From a virus, in UHGV virus genome UHGV-1362718: a stretch of 39,906 nucleotides of DNA. The stretch is one strand, 5' to 3'. Of the stretch, positions 1,587 through 31,393 are shown piece after piece; within the stretch, counting starts at the first letter, position 1, and every line of letters begins with the position of its first letter. Made by a program: the position numbers and the translations under genes. The notes beneath the pieces were generated by a model. That model made no database searches. It was not told where the DNA came from and was given only the letters and a program-made list of their open reading frames with translations.

Positions 1587-2429
1587 ATGGCAGTTAAAAA
1601 AAATGTAAGTGTCATTTCTGTGGAGAAACCAACCTGGTTCCCACTAACAGACGAAACGGGTGCTTTTCCAGTTTACGGAGCGCCAATTACAATCGGTACT
1701 GCTGTAAGTATCAAACCAGATGTTACAACAGAAACAACGCCTGACTATGGCGATAGTGTAGTTCAAGATCAGTACGTTGCATTTGGTGGTGCAGAAGTTA
1801 CTTTGGAAACAAATGGATACCAGAATGAAGTTTTAGCTGAAATTACGGGTGGTGAAAAATTGAAAGGCGGTGTTTTACGATCCGCAGATGATATTGCACC
1901 AGATGGAGCATTCGCTTATCGCCGTCGTAAATCAAATGGTAAATATCGCTACACAATTTTTTATAAAGGCAAATTTGCATTGACTTCTGATGAATCATCA
2001 ACTCTAGAAGGTAGTTCAGTATCTTACACTCATCCAGAGTGGACAGGTTCATTTGTTGATGTTCCTGGTGTCGGATACATGTATTCAGTCGATGAAGACG
2101 ATGAAGGTGTTGACTTAGATATGATCAAAAATTGGTTTACTACGGTTACTAATCCACGTGAAGAGTCTACAAATCCTGTCAGTGGTGTAACTTTAGATAA
2201 AACGGAATTAGTTCTAACGGTTGGTGAAACTGCAACTCTAACGCCAACAATTGCACCTGAAAACGCAACAAACAAAAACTATTCATTCAAATCAAATGAT
2301 ACTTCAATTGCAACAGTAACACCTGTGCAAGGAAAAGTTACAGCAGTAACAGCAGGAACCACAACTGTTGTTGTCACTACTGAAGATGGCAACCATAAAG
2401 CTGAATGCAGCGTAACAGTTAATGCATAA
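1587..2429 (+). CDS. major tail protein with C-terminal Big_2 (Ig-like) domain
   Basis: 280 aa, phi13-type major tail N-terminus. The C-terminal 80 aa (VTLDKTELVLTVGETATLTPTIAPENAT...VTTEDGNHKAECSVTV) is a classic Big_2 fold signature. Confidence 0.7.
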   Translation: MAVKKNVSVISVEKPTWFPLTDETGAFPVYGAPITIGTAVSIKPDVTTETTPDYGDSVVQDQYVAFGGAEVTLETNGYQNEVLAEITGGEKLKGGVLRSADDIAPDGAFAYRRRKSNGKYRYTIFYKGKFALTSDESSTLEGSSVSYTHPEWTGSFVDVPGVGYMYSVDEDDEGVDLDMIKNWFTTVTNPREESTNPVSGVTLDKTELVLTVGETATLTPTIAPENATNKNYSFKSNDTSIATVTPVQGKVTAVTAGTTTVVVTTEDGNHKAECSVTVNA

Positions 2430-3056: not shown

Positions 3057-5981
3057 TTGAACAATGAAGACTTAGTCTTAAAAATGATACTAGATGAATC
3101 AGGATTCTCCCAAGGTCTAAATTCGGCAGTAAAAAAGTTGCAAGGTTTTGATGGAGAGGTTGACAGAACAGGACAAAAAGGCGGCCGCTCTCTTGGATCT
3201 ATTTGGACGTCATTTGTTGGTAACTTTTTAGCCAGCGGAGCAACTAAAATTATTTCAAAAGGAATTGGGCTGATTACCAGCAACATCGATGGGGCCATTA
3301 ATCGCGTGGATACGTTAAATAACGCAAACCGTGTATTTGAAAATATGGGTTTTTCAGCTGGTGAAACATCAAAGACAATGGATAGCTTAAAGAAGAGCAT
3401 CCAAGGGTTACCTACACCTTTAGACAGCGCAATTAAAGGTGTTCAATTAATTGCTTCGTCTACAAATGATTTAGGAAAATCAGAACAGATTTTCGCAGCT
3501 TTAAATAATGGTATCCTCGGCTTTGGTGGGTCTGCAGAGATGGTAGACAATGCTATTATCCAGCTGTCCCAATCGTTCTCAAATGGTAAAGTAGATGCGC
3601 AAACTTGGAACTCAATGATTAACAGTGGTTTGGGTCCAGCGTTGAATGCTTTAGCGAAACAAATGGGGTTAACTGCTGGTCAGATGAAAGAAGGTCTCTC
3701 TGATGGTTCAATTTCAGTTGAAGAATTTCAAGACTCTCTAATTAAATTGAATAAAGAAGGCGGAGGAGGTCTTAAATCATTAGAACAGATTGCTAAAGAC
3801 TCTACTGCAGGTATTAAAACCGGATTGGCTAACATGAAAACTGCGATCGTTCGTGGCGTGGCCAATGTTGTAACTAAAATTGACGAAGGCTTAAAGGGTG
3901 CAGGTTTTGGAAGTATTAGTGAAATTATTGCTGACAAAGGCGCAAAGATGGAAGCGGCTTTATCTAAGTTTGCTGAGACGATTCCACCAATGATAAAAAC
4001 AGTTAAAACATTGTATGATACGTTAAAGCCTTATGCACCGCTACTTGCGGGTTTAGCGGGTAGCATCGGGACGTTAATGCTTGCTAAAAAAGTAAGTGCA
4101 GCATTTACAGCTTGGCAAAAAGCAACGGAAGGACTATCAATTGCGCAAGCGATACTTAATTCAACAATGTTAGCAAATCCTTTTGTCGCTATTCTAGCTG
4201 CGGTTGTAGGGTTAGTCACAGGATTTATTTATCTTTGGAAAACCAATGAAGGTTTTAGAGATGCTGTTAAAAACATTTGGAAAAACATCCAGGAGGTCAT
4301 TTCAAGCGCTGCTGATGTAGTTGTAAAAGCTTGGGATTCGACAATGGAATTCTTCAGCAATATGTGGGATGGCACAAAAGAAGCTTTTTCAAATGCTGGT
4401 ACATGGATGAAAGAAGCACCTGGAAATGCAGCCGACTGGGTTAAAAATAAATGGAATGGTACTAAAGAATTCTTTAGTGGACTTTGGGATTCAACAAAAG
4501 AAGGCTCAAAAAACACATGGGAAAATATCAAGCAGGGTGCTGCTGATAGTGCTAAAAGCGTTGGCGAAAGTTTTAAAAATGGCTTTGATAATGCGAAAGA
4601 TTGGTTTAAGGGTATTGGAAAATCAATATCAGATGTTTTCACAACAGCATTTGATTTTGTTTGGAAATATATTGGTCCGTATGTAACAGGAATCAAAAAT
4701 GCGTTTAAAATGGTTGTTAACGCTATGAAAGCGAACATTGAAAATGTCAAAATGATCGCTGAAAATGTCGTTACCATTCTAAAAAATGTTCTGTTAGCTC
4801 CAATACTTTTCATCACATCAATGATTACAGGTGGGTGGGAAGAAGCAAAAGAGAACATGATTGCCGTTTGGGATAATATTGCTGAAGCAGCCCAAACAAT
4901 TTGGTTTGGTATTAAAAATATCTTTTATAACACTGTCACAGCTATTTCCTATTCAGTCACTTCTATTTTTAATGGATTGATGTTGACAATTAAAAAGATT
5001 TGGATTGATGTGAAGTTATTTTTCACCTTACTTTGGATTGACATCAAATATGGAGCAATCAACGTTTGGATTGAAATTAAATATTCTATCATCGAAACGT
5101 GGATAAATATTAAATTTGAAGCAATTAGAATATGGGAAAGTTTGAAAACTTGGTTCTTTGAAACAGTAGAAAACATTAAAAATGGTGTGATTGATGGCTG
5201 GAACAACCTAAAACAAGGAACCATTGATACATTTAATGCAACTGTTCAATGGTCAAAAGATACATGGTCCAATTTCAAACAGTGGATTGTTGATACGGCG
5301 GTTGGAATAAAAGATGGTGTTGTTCAAACCTGGTATAGAATTAGAAATGGCACAATAGAAACCTTCAACAACATGGTACAAGGTGCTAAAAACGCATGGG
5401 ATAATCTCACAAGAAGTGTTAGTGATACCGTTTCTAATGTACAACAAACTTTTGAAGATTTAAAACATGTTGATTTATTTGAAATTGGCAAAAATATTAT
5501 TCAAGGTTTGGTCGATGGTATCGGGTCCATGATTGGTGCTGTTGGTGAAAAAATTAAAGAAGTTGCAGGGAATATTAAAGATGGGATCAAAGGGGCCTTA
5601 AAAATTCATTCTCCTTCACGTTGGATGCGTGACATGATTGGTAAAAACATTGTGTTGGGTGTCGTGGATGGTATTGATCAAGAGAAAGGAACTTTGGATA
5701 AATCGGTTAAAAATATGGCTGATTTACCTACAGAATTACCGGATTTTTCTGTCACAGGTAGATATGCTAATCAACAGGAATCACAAAGATCTAAATCAGA
5801 TAAGAACAACAGCAATGCAACGACTACCTTTGGTGGTGATACCTTTAACATTAATTTACAAGCAATGGGTGAATTAGATGATAAGCAATTAATGAGCATG
5901 GCTCAAAAATTAGTTAAATACATTCAAGTTGTCAAAAATAGAGATAGCGATGCAGTAGGAGGTGCTTTTGGTGGAATTTAA
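3057..5981 (+). CDS. tail tape measure protein
   Basis: 974 aa, TTG start after AGGGAGGGGG RBS. TP901-like N-terminus, hydrophobic segment, and long 11-residue periodic Trp/Asn repeats. Confidence 0.9.
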   Translation: MNNEDLVLKMILDESGFSQGLNSAVKKLQGFDGEVDRTGQKGGRSLGSIWTSFVGNFLASGATKIISKGIGLITSNIDGAINRVDTLNNANRVFENMGFSAGETSKTMDSLKKSIQGLPTPLDSAIKGVQLIASSTNDLGKSEQIFAALNNGILGFGGSAEMVDNAIIQLSQSFSNGKVDAQTWNSMINSGLGPALNALAKQMGLTAGQMKEGLSDGSISVEEFQDSLIKLNKEGGGGLKSLEQIAKDSTAGIKTGLANMKTAIVRGVANVVTKIDEGLKGAGFGSISEIIADKGAKMEAALSKFAETIPPMIKTVKTLYDTLKPYAPLLAGLAGSIGTLMLAKKVSAAFTAWQKATEGLSIAQAILNSTMLANPFVAILAAVVGLVTGFIYLWKTNEGFRDAVKNIWKNIQEVISSAADVVVKAWDSTMEFFSNMWDGTKEAFSNAGTWMKEAPGNAADWVKNKWNGTKEFFSGLWDSTKEGSKNTWENIKQGAADSAKSVGESFKNGFDNAKDWFKGIGKSISDVFTTAFDFVWKYIGPYVTGIKNAFKMVVNAMKANIENVKMIAENVVTILKNVLLAPILFITSMITGGWEEAKENMIAVWDNIAEAAQTIWFGIKNIFYNTVTAISYSVTSIFNGLMLTIKKIWIDVKLFFTLLWIDIKYGAINVWIEIKYSIIETWINIKFEAIRIWESLKTWFFETVENIKNGVIDGWNNLKQGTIDTFNATVQWSKDTWSNFKQWIVDTAVGIKDGVVQTWYRIRNGTIETFNNMVQGAKNAWDNLTRSVSDTVSNVQQTFEDLKHVDLFEIGKNIIQGLVDGIGSMIGAVGEKIKEVAGNIKDGIKGALKIHSPSRWMRDMIGKNIVLGVVDGIDQEKGTLDKSVKNMADLPTELPDFSVTGRYANQQESQRSKSDKNNSNATTTFGGDTFNINLQAMGELDDKQLMSMAQKLVKYIQVVKNRDSDAVGGAFGGI
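4230..5440 (+). repeat. 33-nt (11-aa) periodic tryptophan repeats inside the tape measure gene
   Basis: Recurrent W..N..K/W.DT motifs such as FFSNMWDGTKEAFSNAGTWMKE, WVKNKWNGTKEFFSGLWDSTKEG and IWIDVKLFFTLLWIDIKYG. Confidence 0.6.
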
Positions 5982-14438: not shown

Positions 14439-14512
14439 GGACCATTAGCTCAGTTGGTTAGAGCAAACGGCTCATAACCGTTCGGTCACAGGTTCGAGTC
14501 CTGTATGATCCA
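14439..14512 (+). tRNA. tRNA-Met (anticodon CAT; could be the lysidine-modified Ile2 type)
   Basis: Cloverleaf: acceptor GGACCAT/ATGATCC with one C4:A69 mismatch, D arm GCTC/GAGC, anticodon stem AACGG/CCGTT with loop CTCATAA, T arm ACAGG-TTCGAGT-CCTGT, discriminator A. No encoded CCA. Confidence 0.8.
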
Positions 14513-29170: not shown

Positions 29171-29587
29171 TTGATTCAATTGTTAAAAGAAGTTGATTTC
29201 AGTCAGACTAGAGCCAATGCGAGAGCCGTGTTGAAAAATTTTAGACGTTTGGACCGAATAGCTGGTCGTTCCTTAGTAGATGTTCGGTCGCCAATCATTA
29301 CAGACATGCCCAAAGGTATAAAGCATGGTAACAAAGCAGAAGATGCGTTGATCCAGATGATTGATGTCGAAGTAGAGCGTGATGCAATTCTAACGGCTTT
29401 GATGTCATTAAGCATAATAAGTCGTCAAATTCTTCACTACAGTTTTTGCGTGCAGGACCATTACTCTAATTACAAAATCGCCAGAGAAATTGGATATTCT
29501 GAAAGAAGTATTCAAAGAATGAAATCAGAAGCTTTGATTGAATTTGCTGAAGCTTATCGAAATGGCAAAATAATTGCATATAAATAA
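29171..29587 (+). CDS. ArpU-family late-gene transcriptional activator
   Basis: 138 aa, TTG start after AAAGGAGCG. Last early gene before the packaging module. C-terminal sigma region-4-like HTH (IAREIGYSERSIQRMKSEAL). Confidence 0.7.
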   Translation: MIQLLKEVDFSQTRANARAVLKNFRRLDRIAGRSLVDVRSPIITDMPKGIKHGNKAEDALIQMIDVEVERDAILTALMSLSIISRQILHYSFCVQDHYSNYKIAREIGYSERSIQRMKSEALIEFAEAYRNGKIIAYK

Positions 29588-29591
29588 TTTT

Positions 29592-29619
29592 TGGCGGTTT
29601 TTTGGCGGAAAGTTGGCGG
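29592..29619 (+). repeat. three phased TGGCGG direct repeats (29592, 29604, 29614) just after the arpU stop
   Basis: TTTTGGCGGTTTTTTGGCGGAAAGTTGGCGGTTTTT with about 11-bp periodicity. GC-rich hexamers in an AT-rich context. Confidence 0.5.
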
Positions 29620-29652
29620 TTTTTATACGAATTTGAGTGCTAATATAGTAAT

Positions 29653-29804
29653 ATCGAAAGTCAAAGAAATGGACACATTACACAACGCTTTCTGGTTTAG
29701 TCACCGTTTGATTTGACTTTCGATGGTCACTTGCAGACTTACGTTCTCAATAAAATGAAGTGAGGTGAATAACCTCCTCTTTTTTCTACAGGTTTGCAAG
29801 TGAC
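29653..29804. repeat. nested inverted repeats: 13-bp ATCGAAAGTCAAA / TTTGACTTTCGAT (29653..29665 and 29712..29724) and 10-bp GTCACTTGCA / TGCAAGTGAC (29726..29735 and 29795..29804)
   Basis: Perfect inverted repeats read directly. The second pair encloses a short terminator hairpin. Confidence 0.5.
29762..29785 (+). terminator. short intrinsic terminator GAGGT-GAATA-ACCTC followed by CTCTTTTTT
   Basis: 5-bp stem plus T-run. Confidence 0.4.
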
Positions 29805-30190
29805 ACAAATAGTTGCTAGGGATGCAGTAGTAACTACCTGATTCATACTAGTCGAGGTTAGGTATATTTCTCTATCCCAGCATATGACGATAAGAACATT
29901 AACCAGATCTCTGCGGCAGCTGCTTACGCACGAGAGCAATTCCTAGACTCATAGAGTAGCAGCTAGGTACGTTTAGGATAAACTTAATCAATTGTTTTTG
30001 CTGGTGTTTGATTGATTGGTCACTGTGGTGGAATATAGACCATACAAGGTGCAAATCCTTGCCAGTGACATAATCATTTTAGCCGTGAAAGTCTGCGAAA
30101 GCTACGTCCTGATGGGAAAACATTCTGACGAGAGTGTGTAAAGGTTAATTTGATTTATTAGCAATTGCTAGAAGGTAGCTCCTTCTGGTT

Positions 30191-30264
30191 TGGCGTGTAG
30201 CATTGTGGTAATGCAACTTACTTCGTGTGAGATAAGATGCGGGTTCGAATCCTGTCACGCCAAT
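30191..30264 (+). tRNA. tRNA-like element (possible degenerate tRNA, anticodon-loop reading TCG, atypical pyrimidine at position 37)
   Basis: Acceptor TGGCGTG/CACGCCA (7 bp), U8, D arm GCAT-TGTGGTA-ATGC, anticodon stem 4/5 bp with loop CTTCGTG, 6-nt variable loop, canonical T arm GCGGG-TTCGAAT-CCTGT, discriminator A. Confidence 0.35.
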
Positions 30265-30358
30265 AGGTAGCATAGCTACTTAAATAAAAAAATCGTCAAT
30301 AAGTCAAATATAACTACCTTTACGATCAGATGACGGTTAAGATTTTCCCTCCTATCTA

Positions 30359-30389
30359 AGGCTGCACTTTCACCGTGCAGTCTTTTTTT
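30359..30389 (+). terminator. intrinsic terminator GGCTGCAC-tttcacc-GTGCAGTC followed by T7
   Basis: Lies downstream of the tRNA-like element. Confidence 0.55.
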
Positions 30390-30393
30390 ATAC

Positions 30394-30523
30394 GTAAAAA
30401 AACCACTAGATTATGGAATCTAGTGGATAGGTAGCAGACTATATTACAAAAAGATGGGCTTTCTAGGTGTAAATAACTGTTTCAGCATTTAAGGAGTTGC
30501 TACCCAAAAGCATTATAGCAAAT
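30394..30523 (-). ncRNA. repeat unit A of a four-member sRNA-like family (minus strand)
   Basis: Reverse complement reads TGcTATAAT (extended -10 at 30512..30520), GGGTAGCAACTCCTT at the 5' end, ...CTGCTACCTATCC, hairpin CCACTAGAT/ATCTAGTGG (30403..30426), then T7. Confidence 0.35.
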
Positions 30524-30608
30524 TAATAGTGATAGACATTATCCAATTTATGTAAGAAATGACATATTTAGTACATAAAATTAATTAAGAATGTCTCTTT
30601 TAGTATGT

Positions 30609-30733
30609 AAAAAACCGCTAATATCGGAAAATTAGCGGATAGGCAGTTATAGTAAGACTTGTTGATAGAATTTTAAATCGCAAAATCTAAATTCATCAAG
30701 AAGGAATTCCTGCCTGTAAAAATTCTAACAAAT
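30609..30733 (-). ncRNA. repeat unit B (most diverged copy)
   Basis: Reverse complement reads TGtTAGAAT -10-like box (30722..30730), CAGGCAGGAATTCCTT 5' end, hairpin CCGCTAAT/ATTAGCGG (30615..30638), then T6. Confidence 0.3.
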
Positions 30734-30830
30734 ATTAAAAAAATTGTAAAACATTTATGTGTTTGTTTTTTTTACATTAATTGCAATCGAGCTTCAGATG
30801 ATGAGTTAGTAACTATGTTTACTGAACAAC

Positions 30831-30949
30831 AAAAAAACCACCAGTGAAATTAATCATGGGTGGTTAGGTAGCTAGTACGATATGAGGAATTTCATGTGCA
30901 AGAAATTTTCTAAGGTATGTCGCTACCCGTAAATAAATTATAGCAAATC
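30831..30949 (-). ncRNA. repeat unit C
   Basis: Reverse complement reads TGcTATAAT (30938..30946), GGGTAGCGACATACCTT, ...AGCTACCTAACC, hairpin ACCACC../..GGTGGT (30837..30868), then T7. Confidence 0.35.
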
Positions 30950-30977
30950 ATTCATTAATTGTCTTGTCTGATGCATA

Positions 30978-31106
30978 TAAAAACCGCTAGTGGTGACATA
31001 CTAGCGGTTAGGTAGCTAATTGTGTGTCTTTTCATGGAATCATGAATTACATAAGGTGTTGATTTAAAAATAAAAGGAGTTGCTACCTAATAAAATTATA
31101 ACAAAT
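30978..31106 (-). ncRNA. repeat unit D
   Basis: Reverse complement reads TGtTATAAT (31095..31103), GGTAGCAACTCCTTTT, ...AGCTACCTAACC, hairpin ACCGCTAGT/ACTAGCGGT (30983..31008), then T5. Confidence 0.35.
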
Positions 31107-31168
31107 AAGAATGATGAATAAAAGAGATTGCCTTGATGGCTGCTTTTTTTGTTTGGAGGGAATGAAGG

Positions 31169-31393
31169 ATGGATAATTATTGGTACATATCCCTGAACCA
31201 CCATTATCCGAAACCCATGAAAAACCAACATAAACGGGTAGTAATGTCGGTGCAGATTAAGAAAGAATATTCCATCATTGAGATGACACGAGAAGCTACA
31301 CCACAAGAAATTGACTATTGCAAGTTGGTATATTGCGGTCATGGGTGTTGGAGTGACAAACATGTACAAGAGAATGTAGAGAAGTATATTTGA
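31169..31393 (+). CDS. hypothetical small protein (74 aa)
   Basis: GGAGGGAATGAAGG RBS. The only plausible ORF in the 1.85 kb gap. Confidence 0.3.
   Translation: MDNYWYISLNHHYPKPMKNQHKRVVMSVQIKKEYSIIEMTREATPQEIDYCKLVYCGHGCWSDKHVQENVEKYI

Follow-up and report, generated by a model that had tools for sequence, protein, structure and literature searches.

The segment downstream of arpU in a temperate Enterococcus faecalis phage is probably the control region and 5′ leader of the late operon

The best-described relative of the locus treated here is the arpU-terS gap of the Enterococcus phage phiFL2A, in which three 7-nucleotide (nt) direct repeats lie immediately distal to arpU (PMC3753634, Quiles-Puchalt et al. 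2013). When the repeats are replaced by adenines, ArpU-dependent expression of terS::blaZ is lost. Purified ArpU shifts the repeat DNA in electrophoretic mobility shift assays, and binding is abolished when at least two repeats are mutated (PMC3753634). Deletion of arpU eliminates late-gene expression and phage production but leaves replication unimpaired, and chimeras carrying staphylococcal repeat blocks in place of those of phiFL2A are still activated by the cognate regulators (PMC3753634). Here, we analyzed the equivalent noncoding segment, positions 29588 to 30190, of the virus genome UHGV-1362718; the whole stretch of 39,906 nt is referred to as the window.

Late transcription in phiFL2A was assigned to a single start, a G lying 118 bp upstream from the ATG that opens terS, by 5′ rapid amplification of cDNA ends (RACE) (PMC3753634). 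The Roche 5′/3′ RACE kit that was used does not tell primary and processed ends apart. In addition, transcripts from a vector promoter (Pcad) failed to reach the reporter without ArpU, from which a terminator between arpU and terS was inferred (PMC3753634). Two other late regulators offer a comparison. For RinA of staphylococcal phage 80alpha, the same group mapped a start more than 155 bp away from the binding site, in RNA depleted of 5′-monophosphate ends (PMC3152322). According to the passage on it in the same source, Alt of lactococcal phage TP901-1 binds a series of direct repeats that are helically phased and immediately precede the late start, at approximately −76 to −32 (PMC3152322).

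For the window, the reading that we favor, with a probability of roughly two in three (0.66), is that the whole segment serves the late operon of the phage as control region and 5′ leader. The operator within it is already known; the details not reported before are the likely promoter position, an account of the published start as a tRNA end, a family of tRNA-like scaffolds, and four antisense small RNA (sRNA) genes. Apart from the operator, the segment is of a common type, namely, the leader of a late operon with a tRNA in it.

ArpU operator and predicted late promoter

The window phage is a temperate E. faecalis phage of the Phifelvirus/phiEf11 group. Phages phiFL2A and IME197 match positions 29589 to 30190 at 99% identity, the match of phiFL3 ends at about 30072, and those of phiEf11 and phiFL1 end at 29806, after which these two phages carry other genes. 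The region is present in 24 phage records and is annotated in none of them. For comparison, 80 IMG/VR contigs encoding ArpU at 83 to 99% identity were used, together with a prophage of Enterococcus gallinarum; related loci are labeled with L-numbers (L001, phiFL2A; L157, the E. gallinarum prophage).

The arpU gene (29171..29587, + strand; stop codon at 29585-29587) encodes a late-gene activator that matches NCBIfam model TIGR01637 (phage_arpU) at 130 bits (E = 4.8e-38). The protein (29171-29584) also shows a weak match to region 4 of a sigma-70 extracytoplasmic function (ECF) model (E = 0.002), and a sequence search of the PDB returned no homologue of ArpU. It may act as a classical activator, a sigma-like factor, or an antiterminator.

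The gene ends right before the operator. Four nucleotides past the stop codon begins the first of three 7-nt direct repeats, TTGGCGG, that span 29591..29619 (+ strand). Their TGGCGG cores are located at 29592, 29603, and 29614, confirming a spacing of exactly 11 bp. This triple box occurs once in the 39.9-kb window and in 0 of 100 shuffles, equals the phiFL2A operator letter for letter, and is invariant in most of the 80 related contigs. In the E. gallinarum prophage, whose arpU is 70% identical, the boxes read TGTAGGG three times with the same 11-bp spacing and in the same position; this shift alongside a diverged ArpU indicates that the repeats follow the specificity of the regulator. There is hardly any doubt that the boxes are the known ArpU operator controlling the late (packaging and lysis) genes, although binding by ArpU and its requirement in the window phage itself are carried over by analogy from phiFL2A.

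Short direct repeats in helical phase beside an A/T-rich stretch could also be replication iterons, which would make the region an origin. However, there are only three boxes of 7 nt, and they sit at the early/late boundary beside arpU. Moreover, the phiFL2A boxes bind ArpU and control transcription, replication proceeds there without arpU (PMC3753634), and in the E. gallinarum prophage a different box sequence accompanies a diverged ArpU. We therefore give an origin practically no weight.

An extended −10 element, TGcTAATAT, is found at 29638..29646 (+ strand) and predicts an ArpU-dependent start near 29653. The motif TGNTA(A/T)TAT is positioned exactly 18 nt past the third box in two divergent E. 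faecalis types and in the E. gallinarum prophage, and in all three sequence types it is followed by (A/G)TCGAAAG. A promoter scan of the arpU-terS gap of phiFL2A yielded a single promoter-like site on the + strand, which overlaps this extended −10. Between 29588 and 31460 of the window, three + strand motifs of the form TGnTAnn(A/T)T are present, the other two more than 1 kb from the boxes. On this basis, ArpU, produced at the end of the early operon, would bind the three helically phased repeats at about −62 to −34 and recruit the host RNA polymerase to a promoter without a −35 element but with an extended −10. The predicted geometry is like that of Alt, again without a recognizable −35, although Alt and ArpU belong to different protein families and the start on the ArpU side is a predicted one.

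The published model for phiFL2A differs in that repeat-bound ArpU switches on a remote promoter with its start immediately past a tRNA gene, so that the 600 bp in between would be a spacer mainly holding the arpU terminator. This model accounts for the single RACE end at −118 and for the blocked Pcad read-through, and RinA of 80alpha provides a precedent for a distal start. The spacing between operator and genes argues otherwise: among relatives with identical boxes, the tRNA end or first gene comes anywhere between about 120 and about 2000 bp after the boxes, while the extended −10 is conserved at a fixed spacing. Measured to the first large open reading frame (ORF), the distance is 121 to 2034 nt (65 relatives), which fits a leader better than a fixed activator-promoter distance. 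Similarly, the activation of the phiFL2A chimeras by their own regulators is more in keeping with a leader than with an activating spacer upstream.

Putative leader hairpins and terminators and the published phiFL2A start

Directly at the predicted +1 begins a 72-nt hairpin (hairpin 1; 29653..29724, + strand) with a minimum free energy of −22.3 kcal/mol and a z score of −5.2 relative to shuffled sequences. Its lower stem is a perfect 13-bp inverted repeat with arms at 29653-29665 and 29712-29724 and 46 nt between them. Type-2 relatives have a hairpin of another sequence in this position, and a similar pairing can be seen by eye in the E. gallinarum prophage, which suggests that a 5′-terminal stem-loop is conserved in the late transcript. 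Such a structure would probably protect the 5′ end of the transcript from decay.

Hairpin 2 (29726..29804, + strand; z = −5.05) follows immediately. Its long outer stem, the second inverted repeat of the segment (arms 29726-29738 and 29792-29804), surrounds a terminator-like hairpin at 29762-29776 followed by CUCUUUUUUC. Across three sequence types, 97% of the cells of the outer stem are paired and 4 of 11 pairs are compensatory, compared to 37 to 50% pairing in slid controls. The tip consists of a 5-bp stem with three G-C pairs and the T-tract CTCTTTTTTC, and it was classified as an intrinsic terminator, albeit a weak one, in a scan that covered both strands. Although its sequence is conserved, the inner stem pairs in just 84% of cells among relatives. 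Most likely, this terminator would stop read-through from arpU and be passed in part by late transcripts. This makes hairpin 2 the first candidate for the terminator that the Pcad experiment placed in the arpU-terS gap.

A stronger terminator-like hairpin, with a 10-bp stem and a T run, is located at 30358-30392 (+ strand), between the tRNA-Arg gene described below and terS. It belongs to a trailer module (30265-30395) that is also found after other tRNAs in relatives. Late transcription either reads through this hairpin or restarts downstream of it. In phiFL2A, the interval from the RACE end to terS contains a terminator-like hairpin that can be discerned by eye, though the scan tool did not flag it; if it terminates, the RACE-detected RNA that reaches terS has itself read through.

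Passage of these terminators can be explained equally well by leaky terminators combined with a strong promoter or by active antitermination. In phage lambda, the site of the regulator Q lies at the late promoter pR′, a terminator (tR′) follows downstream, and more terminators precede the late genes. The arrangement described here is comparable, with a terminator about 110 to 130 nt downstream and with ArpU-dependent transcripts reaching terS when vector-promoter transcripts do not. By analogy with lambda Q, polymerase started by ArpU may be made terminator resistant in order to traverse the cargo region. In contrast to Q, however, a higher promoter flux through leaky terminators accounts for the ArpU data equally well, and a literature search for antitermination by RinA or ArpU found nothing relevant.

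At the right edge of the segment, ARAGORN identifies a tRNA-Arg gene with anticodon UCG (30190..30264, + strand; Rfam tRNA, 46 bits versus a gathering threshold of 29), which had been overlooked in the earlier note on this DNA. It is followed by a small hairpin at 30265..30281 (+ strand), in which G30266 is the equivalent of the phiFL2A RACE 5′ end. The phiFL2A copy of the tRNA has anticodon ACG and differs from the window copy mainly in the anticodon loop; both copies have a U rather than a purine at position 37. A second tRNA gene of the window, tRNA-Met (CAU; 14439-14512, Rfam 68.6 bits), is far from the late leader.

The position of the phiFL2A tRNA bears directly on the published start. 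With the terS ATG at L001 position 3795, the RACE G corresponds to position 3677. ARAGORN places tRNA-Arg at 3601-3675 with discriminator A3674, so that the RACE end lies 3 nt past the discriminator. This G opens a small hairpin, GGTAGC-ATA-GCTAC, which trails the tRNAs of the family with covarying stems. The 40 bp before it are the T arm and acceptor stem of the tRNA, in which the promoter scan detected no promoter-like site. The word "tRNA" appears nowhere in PMC3753634. Judged by the sequence around it, the published start is probably a tRNA processing end. RNase P and RNase Z would cut the tRNA-shaped pieces out of the leader, and a cut by RNase Z, with subsequent trimming up to the hairpin, would leave a late mRNA 5′ end at G30266.

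The window and phiFL2A thus share the three TTGGCGG boxes after arpU, 99% identity over 29589-30190, and the tRNA position. They differ in the packaging module, in the tRNA-Arg anticodon (UCG versus ACG), and in the length of the leader, which is 1.85 kb in the window phage versus 0.79 kb in phiFL2A.

Several points weigh against a promoter adjacent to the boxes combined with later processing. The start near 29653, and with it the placement of the boxes at −62 to −34, is predicted from motifs rather than mapped, and late transcripts starting there must pass both the hairpin 2 terminator and the one at 30358-30392. Another extended −10-like motif, TGGTATATT, lies at 31326-31334, about 115 nt before terS, inside a 74-amino-acid (aa) ORF. 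The processing by RNases P and Z and the stabilizing role of the hairpins are extrapolated from what is generally known of RNA in Firmicutes. The sequences compared all belong to a single recombining pool of Enterococcus phages and therefore represent few independent evolutionary events. Finally, the RinA data oblige us, by analogy, to reckon with a distal promoter in this regulator superfamily. Against such a promoter in phiFL2A stand the tRNA sequence that occupies the 40 bp upstream of the −118 G and the blindness of the phiFL2A RACE to processed ends. On balance, we consider the adjacent promoter with processing the better supported account, somewhat better than an even chance, and the distant promoter unlikely.

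A probable leader of mosaic structure containing a tRNA-like scaffold

Downstream of hairpin 2, two spacers would follow in the leader, the first separated from the second by a 52-nt tRNA-like relic and the second leading up to tRNA-Arg(UCG). The first spacer (mid1; 29807..30018, + strand) has no demonstrable structure or coding capacity, differs by a 7-nt indel between alleles, and is present or absent as a whole block among relatives. The second (mid2; 30071..30189, + strand) abuts the 5′ end of the tRNA and ends in a hairpin at 30167-30189 that contains the palindrome AGAAGG-TAGCT-CCTTCT (30170-30186). Covarying versions of this hairpin (AGGAGG/CCTCC and AGAGGG/CCCTC) precede other tRNAs of the family by approximately 2 to 7 nt, and in many contigs mid2 forms a traveling unit with the next tRNA and with the 3′ half of the tRNA-like element.

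The earlier note had described 29588-30190 as a highly structured and, in its 29800-30150 part, unusually GC-rich segment. The repeats and hairpins it listed are real, as is the lack of + strand ORFs of at least 60 aa, but they are split among several different elements and do not form a single one. The structure claim applies to the two leader hairpins and fails for 29807-30189, which folds no better than shuffled sequence: its four pieces have z scores of −1.8, +0.09, −0.8, and −1.9, the first two falling in mid1. Likewise, the GC claim was overstated, since 29800-30150 has a GC content of 0.413 versus a window mean of 0.355 and ranks within the top 4.3% of 351-nt windows without being the maximum. 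This mild enrichment is best explained by tRNA-derived sequence. Also missed were the tRNA-like element and the true extent of the noncoding gap, whose end lies beyond 30190, at a small ORF (31169) or at terS (31446). That ORF (31169-31393, + strand; 74 aa), directly before terS, has no Pfam or NCBIfam match and is kept in many relatives at 73 to 100% nucleotide identity.

The suggestion of a late promoter or ArpU target holds for the first ~65 bp, for which experimental evidence exists in phiFL2A, and not for the remainder. Its alternative, a structured noncoding RNA (ncRNA), holds in part, for the two hairpins, the tRNA-like relic, and the 5′ flank of the tRNA. The middle of the segment lacks any fold or covariation signal.

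A single large ncRNA over 29650-30190 would have fit the ORF-free, mildly GC-enriched sequence next to a tRNA, and 631 nt (29640-30270), with both hairpins and the tRNA included, indeed fold with z = −3.8. Large phage-borne ncRNAs of Lactobacillales, ROOL and GOLLD, are often situated beside tRNA genes. Unlike these, this stretch has no Rfam match at E ≤ 10 other than tRNA and a chance FMN match (E = 6.4) within 29588-30190. Its composition is modular, with blocks that occur separately in relatives. The strongest fold signals stem from the two hairpins, the middle pieces are weak, and in a seven-sequence alignment of 29807-30018, 0 of 48 predicted pairs are compensatory. A ROOL- or GOLLD-like RNA is accordingly very improbable. 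For the window region as a whole, non-tRNA matches in Rfam 15, which includes riboswitches and ribozymes, have E values of at least 0.14 and scores far below their gathering thresholds, and all but the FMN match fall outside 29588-30190. Searches of this region and 14 related loci, at gathering thresholds and at E = 10, retrieved tRNA, tmRNA, rli28, and RatA alone, leaving the hairpins, spacers, and tRNA-like family unmatched.

Two further candidates were rejected. A coding role for 29588-30190 is contradicted by the presence of just short ORFs without ribosome-binding sites and by alleles that differ by 7-nt and 3-nt indels. Ribozyme-like strings seen by eye, namely, a hammerhead-like CUGAUGG with CUGACGAG and a group II domain V-like string at 30080-30135, are without Rfam support.

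The blocks 29807-30018, 30019-30070, and 30071-30189 and the tRNA are combined differently among the 80 relatives. Most of these have one + strand tRNA in the leader, with identities that include Arg-UCG, Arg-ACG, Asn, Trp, Glu, Lys, Gln, and Asp; in phiEf11, tRNA-Asn directly follows hairpin 2. This modularity also bears on the proposal that the PBSX-type terminase encoded 1.3 to 2.6 kb downstream recognizes the segment for packaging, as a pac or cos site. A location upstream of terS and a wealth of direct and inverted repeats had made this attractive. The window TerS belongs to PF10668 and its TerL to Terminase_3. Compared to phiFL2A gp34 and gp35, TerL shares a common P-loop stretch only (E = 0.006) and TerS shows no similarity. 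The same 600 bp (99%) precede unrelated TerS and TerL proteins in phiFL2A and IME197, phiEf11 and phiFL1 share just 29588-29806, and the modules assort independently of terS in the 80 contigs. In short, the segment is not inherited together with a cognate terminase, and its repeats are already explained as ArpU sites. A packaging site is thus highly unlikely, and a false lead is removed.

The 52-nt element at 30019..30070 (+ strand) reads GTCACTG TG GTGG-AATATAGA-CCAT A CAAGG-TGCAAAT-CCTTG C CAGTGAC A. It has an acceptor stem (GTCACTG/CAGTGAC), a D arm, a T arm, and a discriminator A but lacks an anticodon arm. The D-loop GG is lost as well, and neither Rfam nor ARAGORN calls the element as a tRNA gene. 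A pattern scan located this type of element in 67 IMG/VR contigs and, among 185,579 species genomes, only in nine Enterococcus species (10 genome loci). The 38 distinct elements, 52 to 277 nt long, share a constant tRNA-Leu-like scaffold of acceptor, D, and T arms with a discriminator A and no encoded CCA. The anticodon arm is replaced by an insert of up to ~225 nt. Approximately 14 insert classes can be distinguished, which are kept across host species and contain a few compensatory pairs.

Temperate phages carry members of the family in their late leaders, and the 150-kb Schiekvirus phages carry them in tRNA/tmRNA arrays; examples are L011 4849-5096, L126 5255-5531, L021 4777-4936, L003 1401-1530, and L157 2603-2498 (minus strand). 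The 3′ half of the window relic has a 34-nt match to the Schiekvirus phages, in which a 130-nt version begins 2 nt after the tmRNA. The family is absent from Rfam. ARAGORN calls only the 76-nt form (L160), as tRNA-Asn, which Rfam does not. A tmRNA or group I intron identity was discarded, as ARAGORN and Rfam make no such call, the G3:U70 pair is lacking, and removal of the insert does not leave a canonical tRNA. A literature search for tRNA-like elements of this kind found no earlier description.

The window relic is the "empty" form of this family and may be a deletion relic still offering an acceptor/T-arm minihelix to processing enzymes. We tentatively propose, as a minority possibility, that the family is an undescribed class of Enterococcus phage RNA, a natural tRNA scaffold for expressing and processing diverse small RNAs from late leaders or tRNA arrays. 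Leucyl-tRNA synthetase (LeuRS) does not read the anticodon, so the scaffold RNAs might even be charged; they might also serve as decoys against tRNA-targeting defenses. A parallel exists in the tRNA cluster of phage T4, in which the small stable "species 1 and 2" RNAs are embedded with tRNAs in one transcript. In both cases, tRNA-ended RNAs of unknown function lie in one transcript and would be freed by tRNA-processing enzymes. Unlike in T4, the Enterococcus elements are located between the late promoter and terS of temperate phages and combine a constant scaffold with exchangeable inserts, and their processing is a prediction.

The tRNAs that follow the scaffold (in the window and in L001, L008, L011, L093, L115, L117, and L143) have their flanking hairpins in common, and their acceptor stem is nearly constant (UGGCGUG/CACGCCA or UGACGUG/CACGUCA). 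What differs is the anticodon, with Arg-UCG, Arg-ACG, Glu, Lys, and Ile represented as well as a suppressor-like UUA form, a pattern suggestive of exchanged cassettes or of a diversifying anticodon arm. In a chimeric tRNA (L024 4856-4930, L046, and L053), the 5′ acceptor strand of the scaffold (GTCACTG TGGCG) is fused at TGGCG to the downstream tRNA body. The fusion has the appearance of a deletion that arose when a 5-nt microhomology recombined, and it illustrates how the modules are reshuffled.

Antisense sRNA genes and implications for late gene control

Beyond the trailer module, four tandem paralogous sRNA genes are arranged on the minus strand, antisense to the late leader, within 30396-31110. 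The units (A to D) span about 30396-30505, 30608-30715, 30831-30930, and 30977-31088. Each has an extended −10, TGyTAKAAT, at 30520, 30730, 30945, and 31103, respectively, and a closing stem GGTAGC/GCTACC that covaries to GGCAG/CTGCC in unit B. A UCCUU stretch resembling an anti-Shine-Dalgarno sequence lies near the 5′ end in three of the four, and each unit is closed off by a terminator that has covarying stems and a U-run; the two units that were folded, A and B, have a z score of about −4.6. No consistent ORF and no Rfam family were found for them. The sequence GCUACCUAU of the antisense units could pair with AUAGGUAGC, located after the tRNA in the late transcript.

A type I toxin-antitoxin function for these repeats was considered and rejected, given the lack of a consistent small ORF and of RatA or rli28 matches in the window. 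Rfam matches to rli28 (98.9 bits) and RatA (49.2 bits) do occur after the late leader of the E. gallinarum prophage, at 2089-2271 (minus strand) and 1958-2044 (+ strand). This suggests a TxpA/RatA-type type I toxin-antitoxin locus in the place where the window has its four sRNA genes.

Taken together, a region carried without annotation gains an ArpU operator, a predicted late promoter, leader hairpins, a tRNA-like relic, and a tRNA. In temperate Enterococcus phages, the late leader emerges as a hotspot at which tRNA genes of many different specificities recombine. The leader tRNAs, along with the scaffold RNAs and antisense sRNAs that are absent from Rfam, are candidates for functions in translation support or anti-defense. 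If the published start is indeed a processing end, one would no longer have to explain, for phiFL2A, how an activator works on a promoter 680 bp away. This is relevant to the control that the Ltr/RinA/ArpU superfamily exerts over packaging, over lysis, and over gene transfer by phages in Gram-positive pathogens.

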